From positions 1-64,000 of IMG/VR virus record IMGVR_UViG_3300027708_000025: a DNA stretch of 64,000 bases. One strand, 5' to 3'. Origin of the DNA: a virus. The position numbers and the translations under genes were made by a program. The notes beneath the pieces are model-generated. The model was not told the DNA's origin and ran no database searches. It saw only the letters and a list, made by a program, of their open reading frames with translations. This document shows positions 23,370-44,897 of the stretch, in pieces (the stretch's first letter is position 1; every line of letters starts with the position of its first letter).

Positions 23370-24387
23370 TTTTCTGAATCCTCATTTCACTTTCGCACAT
23401 ATCAAACACCAAGTCTTTAAATGTATACTCTGGTGTCCAACCCAAAACAGTTTTTGCTTTAGTGCAATCACCAAAGATTGTTGGCACTTCTGCTGGACGA
23501 TAAAAGTCTTTGTTCACTTTGATGATAGTCTTACCAGTAGACTTATTGATACCGATTTCACTCAAACCTTCACCTCGCCATTCAATTTCAAATCCGAGAT
23601 ATGTCGCAACATCATTACAGAAGTCTTTTACTGAATGCTCTTCACCACTAGAGATTGCATAGTCATCCGGTTTGTCTTGTTGTAGAATCAACCACATCGC
23701 ACGAACGTAATCTTTAGCATGTCCCCAATCACGCCTTGCTGTTAGATTTCCTAGTTCTAGAATATCTTGCAAACCGAGATGAGTACGAATCATACCTAGT
23801 ACAATTTTGCGTGTAACAAATTCAGGACCTCTACGTGGGCTTTCGTGATTAAACAAAATACCATTGCATGAGAATAGATTAAAACTCTCACGATAGTTTA
23901 CTGTGATCCAATAGCCATACATCTTAGCAACAGCATAAGGTGAACGTGGATAGAATGGAGTGTTTTCTGTTTGTGGAGTTTCTTTTACCTTACCATACAA
24001 CTCACTGGTTGATGCTTGATAAAATTTGACTTGCTTTTCTTTAGACAATCGTTTGACTGCTTCAAGCAATTTGAGTACACCAATAGCGTTAACATCGCCA
24101 GTGTATGTTGGGCAATCATAACTTACGCTAACGTGACTTTGTGCGCCTAAGTTATAAACCTCATCTGGTCTTACTTTGAGAATAATACTTTCAAGATTGG
24201 CCGCATCTGTTAGATCGCTATAGTGAAATGTAATTTGGTCTTTGACATGGTTGATGTTTGCAGTATTGTTTCCTGTACTTGATCGGCGTACAAGACCATG
24301 CACATTATAACCCTTTTCAAGTAGAAGTTCTGCTAGATAACTTCCATCTTGTCCTGTAATACCTGTAATCAAGGCAGTTTTTTGCAT
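23356..24387 (-). CDS. gmd: GDP-mannose 4,6-dehydratase
   Basis: ALITGITGQDGSYLAELLL, YQASTSELYG, PRSPYAVAK, NHESPRRG. Confidence 0.96.
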   Translation of the reverse strand: MQKTALITGITGQDGSYLAELLLEKGYNVHGLVRRSSTGNNTANINHVKDQITFHYSDLTDAANLESIILKVRPDEVYNLGAQSHVSVSYDCPTYTGDVNAIGVLKLLEAVKRLSKEKQVKFYQASTSELYGKVKETPQTENTPFYPRSPYAVAKMYGYWITVNYRESFNLFSCNGILFNHESPRRGPEFVTRKIVLGMIRTHLGLQDILELGNLTARRDWGHAKDYVRAMWLILQQDKPDDYAISSGEEHSVKDFCNDVATYLGFEIEWRGEGLSEIGINKSTGKTIIKVNKDFYRPAEVPTIFGDCTKAKTVLGWTPEYTFKDLVFDMCESEMRIQKNGNT

Positions 24388-24417
24388 ATTATATCCATCC
24401 TATTTTATTGTGAAATC

Positions 24418-24741
24418 TGTGACAGGTTATTCTGTTACGAGGAAACCTGTCGAAACCCTAGTCAGCGTTTAGGCTGCCAATGCGAAACGTGAGTCGTTTG
24501 CGTTTACTTTTTTTTCTTCTTTTTACATCGTTGCTGATGTGCTGTCCACTCTGTTACTCTTTGCCCTGTCGAAACTATGCACCCCCATCAAAAGCATTCT
24601 TAATCTCCAGCATACTTGTGGCGATCAATCCACTTTCAACCTTCTCTGATCCTGCGTCCAGTTTAGAATACTTTTGGTGGAGGTGGGGGGATTCGCACCC
24701 CCGTCCAGAACCTGTTTCTCTTTGCTTCATACAGCAATAAC
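24418..24741 (-). ncRNA. ssrA: Circularly permuted two-piece tmRNA
   Basis: 3'-end piece (GACGGGGGTGCGAATCCCCCCACCTCCACCA, ends 24675) precedes the 5'-end piece starting GGGGGTG at 24586; G3-U70 pair; tag 24469-24501 reads ANDSRFALAA*. Confidence 0.93.
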
Positions 24742-24755
24742 TAACATTATAACGT

Positions 24756-24763
24756 TATTTATA
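24756..24763 (-). promoter_or_regulatory. T4-type late promoter upstream of tmRNA
   Basis: Exact TATAAATA. Confidence 0.7.
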
Positions 24764-24766
24764 CAA

Positions 24767-25435
24767 CTAGTCAATCAATACAGCATCATATGCTTCACGG
24801 TAAGATATAAAATCTTTGATGTAATCATTGCGCTTCTTAATGAACACTTGTGGATGTTCAGAGTCAACTGCTATCATAATTACAATTTGTGATACTGGTA
24901 TTCCAGTTCGCTCTTCATACATGACTGCATACGCAGAACATTGCATGAAGTATCCTTTAATCCAACTCTCTTCTTTTAACTTGCCTGAAGTCTTAAAGTC
25001 AATGATAGATAGCTTGCCATCATATTCTGCAATACAGTCAACTCTACCAGCAACTTTTAGATGATGAGAATACAAAGGAATCTCTAGCGCATGAATGTTG
25101 TTTACATGTTCATCTAATAAAGGTTGTAGAGACTTGAACATAGCAACAGAATCGGGCATTGTTTTACGTGCATAGTCTTCTTCGTTGTTCAAATAGTTTT
25201 CACAAATCTTGTGTACTCTAGTTCCACGGCTGGATGCTTTAGTTGAAATACGATTGGCTTCTTCTTCGCCCACACGTTTTCTCCATTCGAGGATTTTATC
25301 TTTGCCGTGCTGAGAGGTAATGGTAGTAACAGAGGGATATAGTAATCCCTCTGGTGTCTTGTAGAATCGTTTGCCGTTTACTGTCTCGGTTTCCAAATCA
25401 TAGTCAATGTCGCATCCAATGTGTTTAAAGTTCAC
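24767..25435 (-). CDS. PD-(D/E)XK exonuclease
   Basis: YPSVTT, RGTRVH, AGRVDCIAEYDGKLSIIDFKTS, YFMQCSAYA. Confidence 0.9.
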   Translation of the reverse strand: MNFKHIGCDIDYDLETETVNGKRFYKTPEGLLYPSVTTITSQHGKDKILEWRKRVGEEEANRISTKASSRGTRVHKICENYLNNEEDYARKTMPDSVAMFKSLQPLLDEHVNNIHALEIPLYSHHLKVAGRVDCIAEYDGKLSIIDFKTSGKLKEESWIKGYFMQCSAYAVMYEERTGIPVSQIVIMIAVDSEHPQVFIKKRNDYIKDFISYREAYDAVLID

Positions 25436-38233: not shown

Positions 38234-38308
38234 TGGTGGGCAGAGAGAGAATTGAACTCCCACTCAAGCGATTATGAGTCGCCTGCTTTACCATTAAGCT
38301 ACCTGCCC
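38234..38308 (-). tRNA. tRNA-Ile2(CAT)
   Basis: Cloverleaf, GGCGACTCATAATCGC arm as in bacterial ileX; CCA end. Confidence 0.85.
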
Positions 38309-38315
38309 TAAAACT

Positions 38316-38399
38316 TGGTATGAGAGGAGGGACTCGAACCCTCAATCCTTGCGGCGGGAGATTTTAAGTCTCCTGTGTATACCATTCCACCACTCTCAC
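38316..38399 (-). tRNA. tRNA-Leu(TAA)
   Basis: Cloverleaf with long variable arm; CCA. Confidence 0.93.
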
Positions 38400-38404
38400 A
38401 TAAC

Positions 38405-38481
38405 TGGCCTGACTGGAGGGATTCGAACCCCCGACCGACGGATTAGAAATCCGTTGCTCTATCCTACTGAGCTACAGTCAG
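38405..38481 (-). tRNA. tRNA-Arg(TCT)
   Basis: ACGGA-TTTCTAA-TCCGT; CCA. Confidence 0.93.
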
Positions 38482-38500
38482 AATTAATTTCTATACATGT

Positions 38501-38529
38501 AGTATAGTTTATATTGATTTGTGTGTCAA
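38501..38529 (-). promoter_or_regulatory. Sigma70-type promoter for the last three tRNAs and downstream operon
   Basis: TTGACA-17-TATACT. Confidence 0.7.
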
Positions 38530-38530
38530 G

Positions 38531-38604
38531 TGGAGCGGGGTAGGAGAATCGAACTCCTGACTTCAGTTTGGAAGACTGAGGTAATACCATTTTACGAACC
38601 CCGC
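38531..38604 (-). tRNA. tRNA-Gly(TCC)
   Basis: Cloverleaf; TCCA end. Confidence 0.93.
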
Positions 38605-38610
38605 ATTTTT

Positions 38611-38684
38611 TGGCATCTCCTGAGAGACTCGAACTCCCACTTACGGTTTTGGAGACCGCAGTACTGCCATTATACTAAGGAGAC
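38611..38684 (-). tRNA. tRNA-Trp(CCA)
   Basis: GCGGT-CTCCAAA-ACCGT; CCA. Confidence 0.92.
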
Positions 38685-38689
38685 ATTTG

Positions 38690-39223
38690 TTACGGATTCT
38701 TTGCAGAATGTGGTACATCAAACACGAATGTAATCCTGTCTACTGTACCATTGTTCCACGCAGAATGATATTTCTTATTGTCAAACCAGAAAAATGTTCC
38801 TGGTTCTATTTGTCTTTCTTCACCATCTACTTCATACAAGTAAGTGCCTTGCAATGATAAATGATATCTATCTCTTGTCTCATAATATGTACCATCGTCA
38901 ACGTGGCGACCAACACTATCGTTTGGATTTAATTTAAAGAAAGCGGCTCTTGAAGTTTGCGTAATGTCGTGCTTCTTAAGATACTTTCTCACTTCAGTAT
39001 ACTTATCATAAAGCGGTGTGCGTCTTTGCAAATCAGAATTTTTAGGATTCTCATCTGGACTACGAACCATCGCCATCACTAGAGGAAGAAACCCATACGG
39101 ATTCTTTTCCCCACCAATCTTAGAATAAGTAGAAACTGCTTGCCAATCTGTATCGTCAATCTGCCCTAGAATTTTACTTATGTCAATTCCAGTTTCAATG
39201 AATCTAAAATTACTCATCATCAT
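38690..39223 (-). CDS. Aspartyl/asparaginyl beta-hydroxylase-like 2OG-Fe(II) oxygenase
   Basis: HVD...RYHLSL...WFDNKKYHSAWN...RITFVFD. Confidence 0.85.
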   Translation of the reverse strand: MMMSNFRFIETGIDISKILGQIDDTDWQAVSTYSKIGGEKNPYGFLPLVMAMVRSPDENPKNSDLQRRTPLYDKYTEVRKYLKKHDITQTSRAAFFKLNPNDSVGRHVDDGTYYETRDRYHLSLQGTYLYEVDGEERQIEPGTFFWFDNKKYHSAWNNGTVDRITFVFDVPHSAKNP

Positions 39224-39869
39224 ATTCCATCAATTGCATACTTCCCGTATGCGGAAAATCGTATCTATCAAAGTGGTCAAAATTTGTTTTACCAATTGGC
39301 ATAATATTCACACCAACAATGATTCTATAATTGCAATCAGTAGGACTTGTTTGATGCGTTGCCCATGCGGGAAACATAACTAACGTACCTGCGACAAAAG
39401 GTAACTCTTCTTGAGACTTCAACATCAATTCATTTTTATCTGAAATTGCAGGTTGTATTACATATTTCTCTGCACCTAGATTTGGAAATACTGTTCCGCT
39501 TGCATTACCATCAGCATCAAACAAATGAAATGAACCACCCAAGAAACTATTCGCATGACTGTGCATGTGATGAAAGCCACCAGCTTTTTGTCTAGTCGCC
39601 CACATACTTGTAATCCCACACTCATCATAATAACCCATATCATCCATTGCATACTTACCACAACTGTGAATGAAGTCTGTTAACTTTTTAACTTTATCAT
39701 CTTTGTGTAAGTTTGCTCTAGTGATTTGAAGCCCATTCCTTTCACGTTCAGAAAGATATAGATTATCCTGTGCAAGATATCGCACTAAGAATTCTTGGTC
39801 ATTCTCAAAGTTTGGATAATGAAATCTCCAAACTGGTGTGTAGAATAGTTTATGTAATTCGACTTTCAT
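39210..39869 (-). CDS. Putative 2OG-Fe(II) oxygenase
   Basis: HSHANSFLGG, LVMFPAWATH, RIIVGVN. Confidence 0.8.
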   Translation of the reverse strand: MKVELHKLFYTPVWRFHYPNFENDQEFLVRYLAQDNLYLSERERNGLQITRANLHKDDKVKKLTDFIHSCGKYAMDDMGYYDECGITSMWATRQKAGGFHHMHSHANSFLGGSFHLFDADGNASGTVFPNLGAEKYVIQPAISDKNELMLKSQEELPFVAGTLVMFPAWATHQTSPTDCNYRIIVGVNIMPIGKTNFDHFDRYDFPHTGSMQLMEYDDE

Positions 39870-40045
39870 TTGTTTTCAAACTCATCATCATACAAACCCA
39901 TCTCTTGGCTGATACGAACCATTTCATCCAATGCGGCTTCTTGGCGTTTTTTTGCAAATGCTCTTTGCTCTTCTTCGGTTCCTAATTCATATCCTTTATC
40001 AGAATGAATCTCTTCGGCTGCCGCAATATTCTTTTTGTCTATCAT
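39866..40045 (-). CDS. Small hypothetical protein, 59 aa
   Basis: Hand-translated MIDKKNIAAA...ALDEMVRISQEMGLYDD; overlaps both neighbours. Confidence 0.6.
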   Translation of the reverse strand: MIDKKNIAAAEEIHSDKGYELGTEEEQRAFAKKRQEAALDEMVRISQEMGLYDDEFENK

Positions 40046-40515
40046 AAAATCACCCTATGATATTCGTAATTAACTGTATCTTCATTTTCTCTAAAAACAA
40101 CTGCACCATTACGCAAATGAAAACGTCTAGCCAATTCAGTCTTTGGACTTAGCGTAAGGTATCTTTGAATTTCTGGTTTGTTTTCTTTGATGTGACTAAC
40201 AGCATCAAAAATTAATGTACGACCGGCACCTGGAGCATAACTCCAAATGGTATAAAAAATTGCAACAATAGGTTCAGATGAAACTTGAAATAACTCTGTT
40301 TCTTTTGTTGGAATTTCTGTCTGATAACTTACGCATGTGATTGCTTTCACTTTGTCATCTGGATCACGCAACACAAAGATATCTTTGTTGTCGCCAACCC
40401 TATCAACATGTGGAATATGAGGGCGCACAGGATCCTCACTTAACATACTCATTACACTATCAGTAAAAGATTTTATTAGATATAACATTTTTTTATTCTC
40501 ATTTTTTATTCTCAC
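40042..40515 (-). CDS. Hypothetical protein, possible GNAT-like fold
   Basis: DPVRPHI, FYTIWSY.PGAGR, TLSPKT..A.RFHL.NGA. Confidence 0.65.
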   Translation of the reverse strand: MRIKNENKKMLYLIKSFTDSVMSMLSEDPVRPHIPHVDRVGDNKDIFVLRDPDDKVKAITCVSYQTEIPTKETELFQVSSEPIVAIFYTIWSYAPGAGRTLIFDAVSHIKENKPEIQRYLTLSPKTELARRFHLRNGAVVFRENEDTVNYEYHRVIL

Positions 40516-40528
40516 TTCTCTACATTAA

Positions 40529-40603
40529 TGGTGGAGGATGGGAGGATCGAACTCCCACTTCAGACTTGCAAAGCCCATGTGCTCCCATTATCACTAATCC
40601 CCC
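40529..40603 (-). tRNA. tRNA-Ala(TGC)
   Basis: G3-U70; TTTGCAA loop; CCA. Confidence 0.9.
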
Positions 40604-40605
40604 AT

Positions 40606-41130
40606 TTAACTCGGTGTTATGGTGTTAAACGAAATCACCGTTTTTCTTTTATGTCCTAAGTTTATAGGAGAACGATGCCACAAAGTTGCTGGCATCGTTA
40701 AAATATAACCTTCTTCGACATTAGGAATTACAATAGATTCTGTTTTTTGATTCCTAATTTGAGTCTTAACATCATCACTTGGTAACTCCAGATAATAAAC
40801 ATTTGTCCAATTTGCTGTGCCATGAACATGCCAACCATGAAAACTATTGTTATAGTACTGTTGAAACCAACAATTTAAATATCCAAATTGGGTAAATCCT
40901 AATTTTGAATATACATTTTTCATATGCTCAGTTAGAGAAGGACGTAAAATATTCCAATATTTTCTCTCGACATTCTCTTCAACATACCAATCAGTATTAG
41001 TAATTTTTTTGTCATCATTGATAAAAATTGACATACTATCAATGCTTTTGAGAAGAACATTTTTTAAATTGTCATGTTCTTCAAATTTAGATACCGCATA
41101 TGGACAGTCAATGTAATTGATATCAATCAT
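40606..41130 (-). CDS. Putative 2OG-Fe(II) oxygenase
   Basis: WFQQY, HGWHVH, VYYLELP, HRSP, KTVISFN. Confidence 0.8.
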   Translation of the reverse strand: MIDINYIDCPYAVSKFEEHDNLKNVLLKSIDSMSIFINDDKKITNTDWYVEENVERKYWNILRPSLTEHMKNVYSKLGFTQFGYLNCWFQQYYNNSFHGWHVHGTANWTNVYYLELPSDDVKTQIRNQKTESIVIPNVEEGYILTMPATLWHRSPINLGHKRKTVISFNTITPS

Positions 41131-41145
41131 TATTTTTCAATAAAT

Positions 41146-41349
41146 TTATTTTAGCATTTCTACAACTTCTTCTAGTGTCTCACTTACTTCCCATGTGCCA
41201 TGAGGAGGTCCATAAACAAATGTTACATCTTCAATTACTCCATCTTCACGGGTAACAGTATTTCTGTGTATCGTAACAATTAAATCTTTTCTGATTGAAA
41301 CTTTGTGTCCTCTAAACTCTGGACTTGAATTCGTTAGTGTTATAAACAT
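41146..41349 (-). CDS. FlbD-like small protein
   Basis: MFITLT...I.KDLIVTI...VSETLEEVVEML. Confidence 0.55.
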   Translation of the reverse strand: MFITLTNSSPEFRGHKVSIRKDLIVTIHRNTVTREDGVIEDVTFVYGPPHGTWEVSETLEEVVEMLK

Positions 41350-41375
41350 GATATTATCCTTTAAAATTATTAAAC

Positions 41376-41449
41376 TGGTCTCGGTAGCAGGAATCGAACC
41401 TACGCTCTATCGTCCCAAACGACAAGTGATACCATTTCACCATACCGAG
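41376..41449 (-). tRNA. tRNA-Pro(TGG)
   Basis: Cloverleaf; TTTGGGA loop; CCA. Confidence 0.9.
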
Positions 41450-41459
41450 TTATTTATAC

Positions 41460-41533
41460 TGGTGCCCCATGACAGAATCGAACTGCCGTTACCTGAGTAC
41501 AAAACAGGTGTTCTACCATTTAACTAATAGGGC
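41460..41533 (-). tRNA. tRNA-Thr(TGT)
   Basis: CCTGT-TTTGTAC-TCAGG; CCA. Confidence 0.85.
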
Positions 41534-41538
41534 GAAAC

Positions 41539-42282
41539 TTAAATTGCTTTCTCAATTATATTCTTAGCTAAATTATCCACATCGGCTCTTATGGTGCCTC
41601 CGAGAATAACAATTGCATACTGCTCACCATTCTTATGTACTATCATAACAAGACACTTACCAGCCGCATTCGTTGTGCCAGTTTTGGATACTTCAATGAT
41701 ATCAAATTTATTCATCAACTTCACGTTAGTGTTATTGACTGAAATGTGTTTTTCTTTATTCTTCTTATCTACAACAGTTAAATCGTATCTACTCAATGCT
41801 GATATCTCACGTATTTTATCATGTCTATACGCATCTGTCAACAAGACAACCAAGTCCCTTGCGGTACTGGTATTCCTTGCGCTTAGACCAGACGTATCAT
41901 CAAATTTTGTATTGTACATCTCTAGCGCAATTGCACGTTTATTCATTTGGTAAACTGTCCACAATTTACCGCCCATGCTTTCTGCTAATGCTTCTGCGGC
42001 TCTGTTGTCACTTTTGATTAACATTAAATTTAATAATTCTTCTCTAGTAAACTTATTGTGTGAATAAAACATTCCTTTGTATGGAACTTTCTCATTCAAT
42101 GGAACTCCACTTTCAATTATGACAAGTGCGGTCATCAATTTTGTAATGCTTGCTATTGGTCTTATTGTATCAATTTCAGAATCAACAATTGGATACTGTT
42201 TAGTGATATTGTATGTGTAGACTGTAATCGCACTAGCACTTAATGCCGACAGCAATACTAAAGATAAGATTATTTTTTTCAT
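41539..42282 (-). CDS. D-alanyl-D-alanine peptidase, S11 family (PBP7/PbpG-like)
   Basis: SITK, SDN, KTG motifs; signal peptide MKKIILSLVLL; start trimmed to avoid tRNA-Asn. Confidence 0.9.
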   Translation of the reverse strand: MKKIILSLVLLSALSASAITVYTYNITKQYPIVDSEIDTIRPIASITKLMTALVIIESGVPLNEKVPYKGMFYSHNKFTREELLNLMLIKSDNRAAEALAESMGGKLWTVYQMNKRAIALEMYNTKFDDTSGLSARNTSTARDLVVLLTDAYRHDKIREISALSRYDLTVVDKKNKEKHISVNNTNVKLMNKFDIIEVSKTGTTNAAGKCLVMIVHKNGEQYAIVILGGTIRADVDNLAKNIIEKAI

Positions 42283-42296
42283 ATGATTCTTTGTAA

Positions 42297-42371
42297 TGGC
42301 TCCAGAGGCAGGGATCGAACCTACGACCAATTGATTAACAGTCAACTGCACTACCGCTGTGCTACTCTGGA
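42297..42371 (-). tRNA. tRNA-Asn(GTT)
   Basis: Cloverleaf; CTGTTAA loop. Confidence 0.94.
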
Positions 42372-42379
42372 ATAGAAAA

Positions 42380-42455
42380 TGGTTGCGGGTGAAGGATTCG
42401 AACCTCCGTCCTTTAGGTTATGAGCCTAATAGTCTGACCTCTGACGTAACCCGCT
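42380..42455 (-). tRNA. tRNA-fMet(CAT), initiator-like
   Basis: 1:72 mismatch, GCGGG/CCCGC acceptor, CTCATAA loop. Confidence 0.85.
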
Positions 42456-42469
42456 ATAATATATATGTA

Positions 42470-42545
42470 TGGAGTGAGTGACAGGACTCGAACCTGCATT
42501 ATACGGACTTGCAAACCGTTGCCTAGCCTTTCAGCGCACACTCAC
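42470..42545 (-). tRNA. tRNA-Cys(GCA)
   Basis: TTGCAAG loop; U73 discriminator. Confidence 0.85.
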
Positions 42546-42552
42546 ATAAATT

Positions 42553-42680
42553 TGGCGCTCTACAGGATTCTCACCTGTTCACTGGAGACCCTATAATCAG
42601 GGTTTTTATCCCTCTACTGCCATGAATTGCGAATTCATCGTAGAACCCAAGTTGCGAACTTGGCGTGGAAATATCAGAGC
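42553..42680 (-). ncRNA. tRNA-like structured RNA of unknown class, 128 nt
   Basis: GCTCT/AGAGC closing stem plus GCCA end, T-arm-like hairpin, three extra hairpins. Confidence 0.65.
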
Positions 42681-42687
42681 ATAAACT

Positions 42688-42762
42688 TGGCGGTCTGTAG
42701 GAGAATCGAACTCCTGTAAGTGGATAGACAATCCACAGTAATAACCTCTATACGAACAGACC
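42688..42762 (-). tRNA. tRNA-Asp(GTC)
   Basis: GTGGA-TTGTCTA-TCCAC; CCA. Confidence 0.92.
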
Positions 42763-42768
42763 AAAACT

Positions 42769-42853
42769 TGGTGGAGATGATAGGGATCGAACCTATTGTG
42801 ACTTAAGTCGGAAGATTTACAGTCTCCTGCCATACCATTACGGCGGCATCTCC
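42769..42853 (-). tRNA. tRNA-Tyr(GTA)
   Basis: CTGTAAA loop; long variable arm. Confidence 0.93.
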
Positions 42854-42854
42854 A

Positions 42855-42980
42855 TGGTATTAGATTAGTTGACGCACTATTTGCTACGCTCAACGGAATT
42901 AGTGGCCACCTTACCGTTTATGTACGCAGTTACTCAGGCGTTACGATTGCCCATGGCTTACGTCAACTAATCTAATACCA
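42855..42980 (-). ncRNA. Structured RNA candidate closed by a 20-bp perfect stem
   Basis: Inverted repeat 42855-42874 / 42961-42980. Confidence 0.6.
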
Positions 42981-42981
42981 C

Positions 42982-43183
42982 ATTTAATTACACTGGATGA
43001 TTGACAAAAATAACAGTTTTGAACCTGCCCTACCATGTCGTCCATGGATTTGCTTGTCAACCACATTACAGACCAAGTTGTTCCAGCGTGATTCGCTCGT
43101 TCATGTAATCTAGAAGTGCCAGTCCGTCAACTGGTTCTCACTTGTTAAATTACCTACTGGCTTGGTAACCAATGTAATTAAAT
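42982..43183 (-). ncRNA. Multi-stem structured RNA candidate, about 200 nt
   Basis: 15-bp closing stem and four internal helices; mismatches become G-U on minus strand. Confidence 0.65.
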
Positions 43184-43184
43184 C

Positions 43185-43260
43185 TGGTACACCTAGGGGG
43201 AATCGAACCCCTCGTTTGCGCCTTGAAAGGGCGCCGTCCTAACCGTTAGACGATAGGTGC
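43185..43260 (-). tRNA. tRNA-Glu(TTC)
   Basis: GCGCC-CTTTCAA-GGCGC; CCA. Confidence 0.94.
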
Positions 43261-43265
43261 ATAAT

Positions 43266-43278
43266 TTTTTAAAGAACA
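43266..43278 (-). promoter_or_regulatory. boxA-like antitermination element
   Basis: TGTTCTTTAAAAA between promoter and tRNA-Glu. Confidence 0.7.
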
Positions 43279-43306
43279 TTTGATTGATTTCTCAATCTAT
43301 GAATAG

Positions 43307-43369
43307 AGTATAACACTCTAAACATTTCCTGTCAACAACTATTTTTGGTAACTGTTGTTTTTTATTAAC
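43307..43369 (-). promoter_or_regulatory. Repeated early promoter unit inside tRNA array
   Basis: Palindrome variant, AAAATAGTTG, TTGACA-17-TATACT. Confidence 0.8.
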
Positions 43370-43371
43370 AC

Positions 43372-43459
43372 TGGCAGAGAGTATGAGATTCGAACTCATG
43401 CACCGCTTTCGCAATGACAGTTTAGCAAACTGCTCCTTTAACCACTCAGGCAACTCTCT
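43372..43459 (-). tRNA. tRNA-Ser(GCT)
   Basis: TTGCTAA loop; long variable arm. Confidence 0.93.
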
Positions 43460-43462
43460 ATA

Positions 43463-43552
43463 TGGCGGAAGCGGTGAGATTCGAACTCACGGAACATTTC
43501 TGTTCGCTAGTTTTCAAGACTAGTGCCATAAACCGGACTCGACCACACTTCC
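43463..43552 (-). tRNA. tRNA-Ser(TGA)
   Basis: CTTGAAA loop; long variable arm. Confidence 0.94.
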
Positions 43553-43558
43553 ATAACT

Positions 43559-43633
43559 TGGTGCGCCCTGAGAGAATCAAACTCCCACTTCAACGTTCGT
43601 AGCGTTGTGTAATATTCATTTTACTAAAGGCGC
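43559..43633 (-). tRNA. tRNA-Arg(ACG)
   Basis: CAACG-CTACGAA-CGTTG; atypical D and T loops. Confidence 0.87.
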
Positions 43634-43644
43634 ATAAAAACATT

Positions 43645-43721
43645 TGGTGCCCTCTCTCAGATTCGAACTGAGACTTTACGGCTTCTAAGACCGATCTCTC
43701 TACCAATTGGAGTAAGAGGGC
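43645..43721 (-). tRNA. tRNA-Leu(TAG), short variable arm
   Basis: CTTAGAA loop; 77 nt. Confidence 0.85.
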
Positions 43722-43724
43722 ATT

Positions 43725-43798
43725 TGGTTCCCAGAGCAAGAATCGAACTTGCGATAAAGGCTTATCAAGCCTACGTTATACCATTTAACTATCCGGGA
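43725..43798 (-). tRNA. tRNA-Ile(GAT)
   Basis: TTGATAA loop; CCA. Confidence 0.9.
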
Positions 43799-43799
43799 T

Positions 43800-43958
43800 T
43801 AATTTCGATTTTCATCTCCCACTACTAACTATTGCTTCCCAATTTATCGTCCATTGGCACCCGTGGTAGGGCTTTCAATGCTCATCGGCCTTGCGTTCTA
43901 GCGCAAGTGATCCTTGGGATAGGACTGCTAGGCCTTAACTTGCCTAGCATCAAGTGAA
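43800..43958 (-). ncRNA. Structured RNA candidate, about 160 nt
   Basis: Four consecutive hairpins plus possible pseudoknot. Confidence 0.5.
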
Positions 43959-43959
43959 T

Positions 43960-44034
43960 TGGTACCTTGTGACAGGATCGAACTGCCGACCTTCTCCTTG
44001 TAAGGGAGACACTCTACCGCTGAGTTAACAAGGC
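43960..44034 (-). tRNA. tRNA-Val(TAC)
   Basis: TCTCC-CTTACAA-GGAGA; CCA. Confidence 0.94.
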
Positions 44035-44043
44035 AATTTTCTT

Positions 44044-44119
44044 TGGGGTGACCTATGGAATTCGAATCCATGCTATCGGAATCACAATCCGAGGTGCTAA
44101 CCGCTGACACTAAGGTCAC
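44044..44119 (-). tRNA. tRNA-His(GTG)
   Basis: TTGTGAT loop; C73; position -1 is T. Confidence 0.9.
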
Positions 44120-44131
44120 ACCAAAGAAAAC

Positions 44132-44206
44132 TGGTAGGGGCACCGAGAATTGAACTCGGATTTACTGGTTAAAAGCCAGCTACTCTAGCCGTTGAGTTAT
44201 ACCCCC
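44132..44206 (-). tRNA. tRNA-Lys(TTT)
   Basis: GCTGG-CTTTTAA-CCAGT; CCA. Confidence 0.92.
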
Positions 44207-44210
44207 AAAT

Positions 44211-44285
44211 TGGTGGTGACAGTTGGATTTGAACCAACGACCGATTGCGTATGAAGCAATTGCACTACCGCTGTGCTATGTCACC
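44211..44285 (-). tRNA. tRNA-Met(CAT), elongator
   Basis: ATTGC-TTCATAC-GCAAT; CCA. Confidence 0.88.
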
Positions 44286-44292
44286 TTTTATT

Positions 44293-44366
44293 TGGCAGAG
44301 GGTACAAGGATCGAACTTGTGCTAACAGAGTCAAAGTCTGGTGTGCTACCGCTACACTAACCCCCA
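44293..44366 (-). tRNA. tRNA-Gln(TTG)
   Basis: CTTTGAC loop; CCA; first tRNA of the array. Confidence 0.9.
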
Positions 44367-44388: not shown

Positions 44389-44401
44389 TTGTTAAAGAAC
44401 G
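44389..44401 (-). promoter_or_regulatory. rrn-type boxA antitermination element
   Basis: CGTTCTTTAACAA, 22 nt upstream of first tRNA. Confidence 0.8.
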
Positions 44402-44427
44402 TTTGTAATATATTCGATGATATACAC

Positions 44428-44464
44428 AAAGAAAAACCCCCTAGAGTTTTCAGTCTCTAGGGGG
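44428..44464 (-). terminator. Intrinsic terminator (attenuator) in front of tRNA array
   Basis: CCCCCTAGAG-ACTGAAAA-CTCTAGGGGG then TTTTTCTTT. Confidence 0.9.
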
Positions 44465-44516
44465 CTTGTCTTTGTATTCTCTTTGGACTTATGGTCCTCA
44501 GGTATAACAAGCCCCC
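44460..44516 (-). promoter_or_regulatory. Antiterminator helix, mutually exclusive with the terminator
   Basis: GGGGGCTTGT (44507-44516) pairs perfectly with ACAAGCCCCC (44460-44469), which includes half of the terminator 5' arm. Confidence 0.8.
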
Positions 44517-44614
44517 ATCACTGGTGCGTGGCAATCGGATTTCTCTGAGCGAGAAATACTCTGCCACGTAATCGGCATATAATTTCTTGTTGAGAGTTTC
44601 GATATTAAATTCAT
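44498..44614 (-). CDS. Putative attenuator leader peptide, 38 aa
   Basis: Not in ORF track; MNLISKLSTRNYMPITWQSISRSEKSDCHAPVMGACYT*; start 1 nt after upstream stop; 19 amino acids, no Phe. Confidence 0.78.
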   Translation of the reverse strand: MNLISKLSTRNYMPITWQSISRSEKSDCHAPVMGACYT

Positions 44615-44615
44615 T

Positions 44616-44897
44616 TTAGTTTACTGTTTCTTCGTTAAAAATATTAGACCATTTCTGGAGTTTTGCTTTCTTGTTTGCGGATGCTTTATCTACGTCATCA
44701 ATGTTAATGATACCTGTTTCAATCATCAACTGAATCATACAAAATAAATCACCAACTTCTTCTGTCAATCTGTCTCGGTTAGATGCACCATTGTGTTCAC
44801 CATCTAAACCAAATCTAAAAACTTTACTGATTGCCTGTGTCACTTCGGCACATTCTTCTTGTGCAATTAGTAAAACTTCTTTTTCAACACTATTCAT
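44616..44897 (-). CDS. MazG-like nucleotide pyrophosphohydrolase
   Basis: QEECAEVTQAISK...LTEEVGDL. Confidence 0.8.
   Translation of the reverse strand: MNSVEKEVLLIAQEECAEVTQAISKVFRFGLDGEHNGASNRDRLTEEVGDLFCMIQLMIETGIINIDDVDKASANKKAKLQKWSNIFNEETVN

Follow-up and report, generated by a model that had tools for sequence, protein, structure and literature searches.

A putative attenuator leader with broad amino-acid coverage ahead of a phage tRNA array

Introduction

Ribosome-dependent leader-peptide attenuation is a known type of switch. The classical leaders (trpL, hisL, pheL, thrL and ilvGMEDA) carry runs of regulatory codons and use a 1:2 anti-antiterminator hairpin. They are short, translated leaders ahead of genes for biosynthetic enzymes, and their transcripts form alternative antiterminator and terminator hairpins, with the ribosome that terminates at the stop codon masking the antiterminator strand.

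The closest known case to the locus described here is the whiB7 upstream open reading frame (uORF) of mycobacteria, where efficient translation leads to termination and stalled translation leads to read-through (PMC10274678). Another uORF, toiL, found at topAI-yjhQ in E. coli, is described in the abstract of its report as sensing ribosome-targeting antibiotics and regulating a toxin-antitoxin transcript (PMC12121999).

The locus compared with these systems is a short open reading frame (ORF) ahead of the tRNA genes of a phage. It shares with the classical leaders the short reading frame, whose translation is predicted, as well as alternative antiterminator and terminator hairpins and a stop codon at which a terminating ribosome would mask the antiterminator strand. 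Unlike them it has about one codon per amino acid, no 1:2 pairing was found in it, and the genes behind it are tRNA genes instead of biosynthetic enzymes. The likeness to whiB7 is closer: both have a short uORF, an intrinsic terminator and an antiterminator, and a broad-composition leader serving as a general sensor of decoding is the same logic that is proposed here for the phage leader.

The two differ in that there is no sequence relation between them and in that the phage output is a tRNA array, whereas the whiB7 output is a transcription factor. The phage leaders are also more compact and more complete (for 23 of them, 34-40 codons suffice to include all 20 amino acids), while complete coverage across families is not claimed for whiB7, and the uORF of M. 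tuberculosis lacks several amino acids. By this comparison the phage leader would be an analogue of the whiB7-type uORFs, not a member. With toiL it shares a response, proposed or shown, to stalling from many causes; the abstract of the toiL report describes neither an all-amino-acid composition nor a tRNA output (PMC12121999). A literature search found no published account of phage tRNA genes being controlled by a leader peptide.

Genome context and tRNA array

The window, the whole 64,000-nucleotide stretch of DNA that was analysed, comes from a complete phage genome of 150,107 bp, of which it forms the first 64 kb. The genome has direct terminal repeats, a CheckV completeness of 100 and 37% G+C. 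When the region was searched with blastn against cultured phage records it matched only tRNA fragments, and no close cultured relative was found. On the minus strand the order is a MazG-like gene, a 38-codon ORF, a terminator, a boxA-like motif and tRNA-Gln, the first tRNA. The MazG-like gene (44616-44897, minus strand) encodes a nucleoside triphosphate pyrophosphohydrolase by its matches to Pfam MazG (E 5e-6) and PHROG 4856 (E 1.8e-24). A single base separates its TAA stop from the ATG of the leader, and in the relative L015 the stop and the start overlap, a spacing that suggests translational coupling.

ARAGORN finds 24 tRNAs serving 19 amino acids between 38234 and 44366 on the minus strand, three of them with a CAT anticodon, and the Rfam tRNA model recovers the same 24 positions. 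The first block (43372-44366, minus strand) holds Gln, Met, Lys, His, Val, Ile, Leu, Arg, Ser and Ser. It sits directly behind the putative attenuator, and promoter scans detected no promoter of its own. The remainder of the array (38234-43260, minus strand) has internal TTGACA-17-TATACT promoters, for example the one at 43335-43307 (minus strand), which lies upstream of tRNA-Glu and is followed by the 17-nt element GATTGAGAAATCAATCA.

Just upstream of the first tRNA the alignment shows the boxA-like motif CGTTCTTTAACAA (44389-44401, minus strand). Most relatives have a sigma-70-type promoter between the terminator and this motif. It is absent in the window: a piece of about 67 nt that bears the promoter is missing from the window, L002, L004 and L013 (44402-44433, minus strand, compared with L006, L007 and L012). 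The first ten tRNAs of the window would thus depend on read-through.

Several observations concern such arrays in general. The TTGACA-17-TATACT promoter, the 17-nt element and a boxA-like TGTTCTTTAA form a cassette that heads many tRNA blocks; it is found in the window at 43307-43335 and 43278-43300 (both minus strand) and in many freshwater phage contigs (loci L094-L165). In IMG/VR, 36 of 73 matches to the 17-mer are located 40-80 nt before a tRNA. At L150, L199, L237 and L251 the promoter, the 17-mer cassette and the tRNA block come directly after a protein gene, and the leader ORF and terminator are absent from these four arrays, so the attenuator would be optional.

Near-identical phages differ by single tRNA genes (Cys and Asn between L082/L007 and the window, Asn between L092 and L093), and in the same pairs the genes inserted between the tRNAs differ too. 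The arrays therefore appear to turn over fast and look mosaic. Some related arrays contain unusual tRNAs according to ARAGORN: in L205 (array after 5576) one with anticodon TTA, matching the stop codon UAA, along with an Ile(TAT), and in L286 (G001:C1:39500-50800) one whose anticodon (ATAC) has four bases. The window also holds a tmRNA gene (24378-24788, minus strand), which scores 119.8 bits with the Rfam permuted (two-piece) tmRNA model and 100.5 bits with the beta-proteobacterial one; its tag peptide according to ARAGORN is ANDSRFALAA.

Leader ORF content in the window

The leader ORF (44498-44614, minus strand) has 38 codons and a TGA stop, and its translation uses 19 amino acids and 31 distinct codons. 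It matches no Pfam or PHROG family. The initial annotation had described it as lacking only Phe and as lying ahead of an array that covers the same 19 amino acids, and the translation and ARAGORN bear this out, with 24 tRNAs and no tRNA-Phe. A tRNA-Phe elsewhere would have weakened that match, but ARAGORN and the Rfam tRNA model detect none, whether in the window or across the entire 150-kb genome.

The codon content is also as it had been reported. Both boxes of each split family are present (Leu TTA and CTC, Ile ATA and ATT, Arg AGA and CGC, Ser TCN and AGT), together with all four TCN codons (TCG, TCA, TCT and TCC) and three Thr codons (ACA, ACG and ACC). The G/C-ending codons are indeed unusual: the GC3 of the leader is 0.45, compared with 0.27 in the long ORFs of the genome, and its codon usage is flat or slightly over-dispersed, unlike the A/T-ending bias of the genome. 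Among the codons that had been listed as unusual, CAG, GAG and GGG belong to the ORF hairpin or to the antiterminator strand described below, so RNA structure explains some of the G/C-ending codons.

How unusual this diversity is depends on the null. Under the codon usage of the phage genes, the probability of at least 19 amino acids is 0.026, of at least 31 codons 0.006, and of exactly 19 with only Phe missing 0.0007. Compared with stop-free dinucleotide shuffles of its own sequence, the coverage of the leader has P = 0.14. The genome has 219 real ORFs of 33-43 codons; 5 of them also reach 19 amino acids, and three of those five are in the tRNA region. For the window alone the diversity is thus only mildly unusual, and suggestive (P about 0.03 to 0.14, by null).

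One of the five ORFs just counted, an antisense ORF of 43 codons, overlaps the leader (44417-44548, plus strand) and has 19 amino acids and 34 distinct codons, so this base-balanced stretch yields diverse ORFs in more than one frame. Across the leader DNAs, the other frames give 13-19 amino acids and 0-6 stop codons.

RNA anatomy

Three structures were found in the RNA. The most upstream is a hairpin within the ORF (codons 16-29; 44527-44568, minus strand), seen in the folds and the alignment. Its stems are invariant within type 1, the leader type of the window, and a mid-ORF hairpin is visible by eye in other families. It is a candidate RNA polymerase pause or synchronising hairpin. Codon 23 (TCA, Ser; 44546-44548, minus strand) lies in its loop and so is free to vary at the RNA level; the alignments show TTT (Phe) at this codon in the majority of type-1 relatives, with CTT or ATT elsewhere.

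The antiterminator is formed by a 5' strand, segment 2 (GGGGGCTTGT; 44507-44516, minus strand), which is leader codons 33-36, and a 3' strand, segment 3 (ACAAGCCCCC; 44460-44469, minus strand), which overlaps the 5' arm of the terminator. Both were located by duplex and fold prediction. In the window the duplex of segments 2 and 3 has an energy of -22.8 kcal/mol, compared with -10.7 +/- 2.8 for shuffles. The complementarity is better than that of shuffles (P <= 0.016) in 10 of 11 variants of differing sequence, and in every family, although both strands have changed, they are still complementary, as in L043 (GAGGCTTTTTG and CAAAAAGCCTC) and L098 (GGGGTTTTG and CAAAACCCC). Compensatory change was judged by this complementarity between families, since the stems are invariant within type 1 and a count of covariation in the alignment is uninformative there.

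The third structure is a strong intrinsic terminator (44428-44467, minus strand), about 40 nt downstream of segment 2, with a G+C-rich stem of 10-13 bp, an 8-nt loop and a T-run; the stem arms are at 44455-44464 and 44437-44446. The full RNA folds into the terminator (-67.9 kcal/mol, z -7.1), and an RNA that ends before the 3' arm of the terminator folds into the ORF hairpin and the antiterminator (-50.5 kcal/mol, z -5.3). In that nascent-RNA fold there is no 1:2 anti-antiterminator pairing, and segment 2 has no upstream partner.

The stop codon of the window's leader starts 6 nt past the 10-nt core of segment 2; in the relatives the position of the stop ranges from 10 nt ahead of the end of the duplex-defined segment 2 to 22 nt past it. 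By this geometry the stop seems to be placed for a terminating ribosome to cover the antiterminator strand. The leader has no codon run or enrichment for one amino acid, and most amino acids occur once or twice.

Other RNA elements were considered. A small hairpin after the stop (44485-44497) was excluded from the model since it is not kept in L015. The Rfam His_leader model (RF00514) scores 28.5 bits at 44428-44527, with a threshold of 49 and an E-value of 0.68, and the locus is not a member of that family. The T-box covariance model has no match at E <= 1 between 20000 and 50000.

Four lake or freshwater metatranscriptome studies yielded RNA-library contigs across the leader and MazG, one of which spans 44424 to 44642 without a difference. 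As contigs that give no ends, strand or level, they are a weak hint of leader expression. In one run contigs end at 44455, which may reflect assembly breaks at the inverted repeat.

Relatives and amino-acid coverage

A scan with the MazG protein gave 80 loci, 15 of which have the order MazG, ORF, terminator and tRNA. The leader frame is open in all 15, and in most of them it has all 20 amino acids in 37-39 codons, with TTT at codon 23. The peptides of L015 and L016 are only about 58% identical, and each has all 20 amino acids. A search for the 17-nt element added further array heads, and a motif of one leader family added 45 loci. Three more scans added little: the leader-peptide scan of IMG/VR gave one additional contig only, the metagenome scan for the 17-nt element gave mostly chance matches (93 of 120 loci without a tRNA and only 10 array heads), and the type-4 pattern scan gave no loci beyond those already found.

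Leaders were called by a rule that is blind to composition: of the ORFs that run through the antiterminator strand and stop short of the terminator, the longest was taken. The rule yielded 47 distinct leaders, 34-56 codons in length with a median of 38, which fall into at least seven sequence families from freshwater phages. The families share little sequence, and they share a common layout: a short ORF whose last codons are the antiterminator strand, then the terminator, then the tRNAs.

In the families that are not linked to MazG, the leader follows no gene, and promoter-like hexamers can be seen by eye upstream. By eye, L095 and L106 also have AGGA or GGAG motifs 7-9 nt upstream of the start. 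In the type-5 family (L099, L131 and others) the leader ATG comes about 6 nt downstream of a TATAAT hexamer, which may mean that the leader mRNA of this type is leaderless; other type-5 members have TTG or GTG as the start codon.

Amino-acid coverage is high throughout this set. All 20 amino acids occur in 26 of the 47 leaders, 19 in 15 leaders, 18 in five and 17 in one. Under a flat amino-acid composition 1.5 complete leaders would be expected, and the mean coverage is 19.4 compared with an expected 17.1. No more than 40 codons are needed by 23 of the 26 complete leaders. The first 22 leaders were each compared with dinucleotide shuffles, and all are above their own shuffle mean (mean z +1.7). 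Identity between families is limited to 6-9 of the 34-40 residues, yet 19-20 amino acids are retained, and random replacement at the changed sites restores the observed coverage with P about 0.001.

With near-total sequence turnover and coverage kept, shared ancestry is not the explanation. Complete amino-acid coverage is thus a selected trait of these leader ORFs, and the leader of the window is a family member that has lost one amino acid. The significance of the coverage comes from the relatives and not from the window alone.

The initial annotation had proposed that selection acts on codon identity and not on the peptide. The preference for content over peptide sequence is supported by the same figures. 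The codon-level part is weaker. Both boxes of Leu, Arg, Ser and Ile are used 68 times in 22 leaders, compared with 50 +/- 3.8 under uniform synonymous choice, but the excess is modest when one leader is taken per family (21 vs 15.7, P = 0.005; with alternative picks 20 vs 16.1, P = 0.06). The number of distinct codons in the leaders is slightly above the uniform null.

Leader content and tRNA content

It had also been suggested that the leader mirrors the tRNA array, and that leader amino-acid sets in relatives would track their tRNA gene sets. Among the relatives a suggestive pattern of this kind was seen for Phe only, with one exception, and not for the other amino acids.

The Phe codon and tRNA-Phe are both absent in the window's clade (the window, L007/L082 and L081). 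Both are also absent in L089, which has a different substitution at codon 23 and in which tRNA-Phe is missing at the syntenic place; the array of L089 is cut after 11 tRNAs. The unrelated clade of L098, L141 and L155 lacks both as well, and its sister L111 has both. This makes two or three clades of joint absence. The two are jointly present in seven lineages, and in no case among the relatives does an array that lacks tRNA-Phe follow a leader with Phe. The exception is L010/L091, where tRNA-Phe is present and the Phe codon absent. Counted by lineage, a one-sided Fisher test (hand calculation) gives P of about 0.02 to 0.07, a range that depends on whether the two type-1 clades are taken as independent, and these genomes show clear mosaicism.

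For Asn, Cys, Gly, Tyr, Lys, His and Val the leader does not track the array. Codons are kept even though the tRNA is absent for Asn (L092, L109 and L111), Cys and Asn (L082), Gly (L155) and Tyr (L291), and leaders without Lys, Cys, His or Val precede arrays that have those tRNAs.

A tentative explanation of the missing Phe codon is relaxed selection after loss of tRNA-Phe, since the phage would then be unable to repair the shortage. A broader reading is possible, if doubtful: the arrays would be under homeostatic feedback by an all-amino-acid leader that monitors the decoding of every codon family together, and the roster of the leader would co-evolve with the roster of tRNAs, with Phe dropped from both together.

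Discussion

The ORF is probably the leader peptide of a ribosome-dependent transcription attenuator ahead of the phage tRNA genes. What the sequences show directly is the anatomy of the region, the fact that it is conserved, the compensatory changes and the coverage of amino acids. From these we infer that the ORF is translated, which way the switch works and what physiological signal it responds to, which together suggest the following model.

When no ribosome is on the last codons, the antiterminator would fold in the nascent RNA and the polymerase would continue into the tRNA genes. When a ribosome sits at the stop codon it would mask segment 2, the terminator would form and transcription would end. 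With about one codon per amino acid and no runs, a shortage of any charged tRNA would stall the ribosome early. An early stall would in turn raise transcription of the tRNA genes, which would amount to feedback on overall decoding capacity.

The missing 1:2 pairing bears on this model in two ways. A stall anywhere in the ORF should give read-through, which fits the sampling of all amino acids. Unlike in trp, the absence of translation would then also mean read-through, which is an unusual default and counts against the model. In most relatives a strong promoter follows the terminator, so there the attenuator would control only part of the tRNA transcription.

The locus can be read in other ways. 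The terminator might simply end the MazG operon, with the short ORF being incidental or an ordinary small gene whose diversity comes from a base-balanced, structured sequence. The window by itself sits comfortably with this, as its coverage has P = 0.14 against its own composition and about 2% of the ORFs of the same size in the genome reach 19 amino acids, three of those five being in the tRNA region. So does the separate tRNA promoter that follows the terminator in most relatives. It is unlikely, however, when the families are taken together: the ORF is open and ends at segment 2 in every one of them despite sequence turnover, 26 of 47 leaders are complete where 1.5 are expected, and other frames of the same DNA reach only 13-19 amino acids with 0-6 stops. 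The complementarity of segments 2 and 3 is also kept by compensatory change, and in the other families the leader follows no gene, with promoter-like hexamers (by eye) in front of it.

The locus might also be a switch made of RNA only, whose state depends on a protein, a small RNA or, in the manner of a T-box, an uncharged tRNA, with the reading frame as a by-product. The stems are the most conserved nucleotides within type 1 and the peptide is poorly conserved between families, both of which speak for such a switch. Yet no T-box or other Rfam family matches at E <= 1 except the sub-threshold His_leader, and a by-product frame is not expected to stay open for at least 34 codons in all 47 variants in an AT-rich genome, nor to end beside segment 2 or carry all 20 amino acids, which makes this reading quite improbable. 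The conserved frame and its plausible start signal could instead mean that the function lies in the peptide, for example as a small regulator or a toxin-like product, with the downstream hairpins forming only the 3' end of the transcript; leader peptides that act in trans are known, peTrpL being one. This is very improbable, as the peptide has no Pfam or PHROG match, only 6-9 residues are common between families, and conservation concerns composition and where the stop lies with respect to the RNA structure.

The attenuator reading is thus preferred. What is new is a set of attenuator leaders, selected to contain every amino acid, that lie ahead of phage tRNA arrays and whose function we infer. 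If it holds, these would be the clearest natural leader peptides selected for full amino-acid coverage and not for sequence or for one amino acid. The element would be simple, testable and cis-acting, and it could find use in the laboratory as a compact, general reporter of stress on translation. If the leader and tRNA rosters do co-evolve, the attenuator would report only those shortages that the phage can repair.

The roles of phage tRNA genes are debated, and include matching of codon usage, compensation for decay of host tRNAs and countering of defences that cleave tRNAs. A sensor that raises phage tRNAs on any slow codon would, if true, be direct evidence that these arrays serve to keep translation running.
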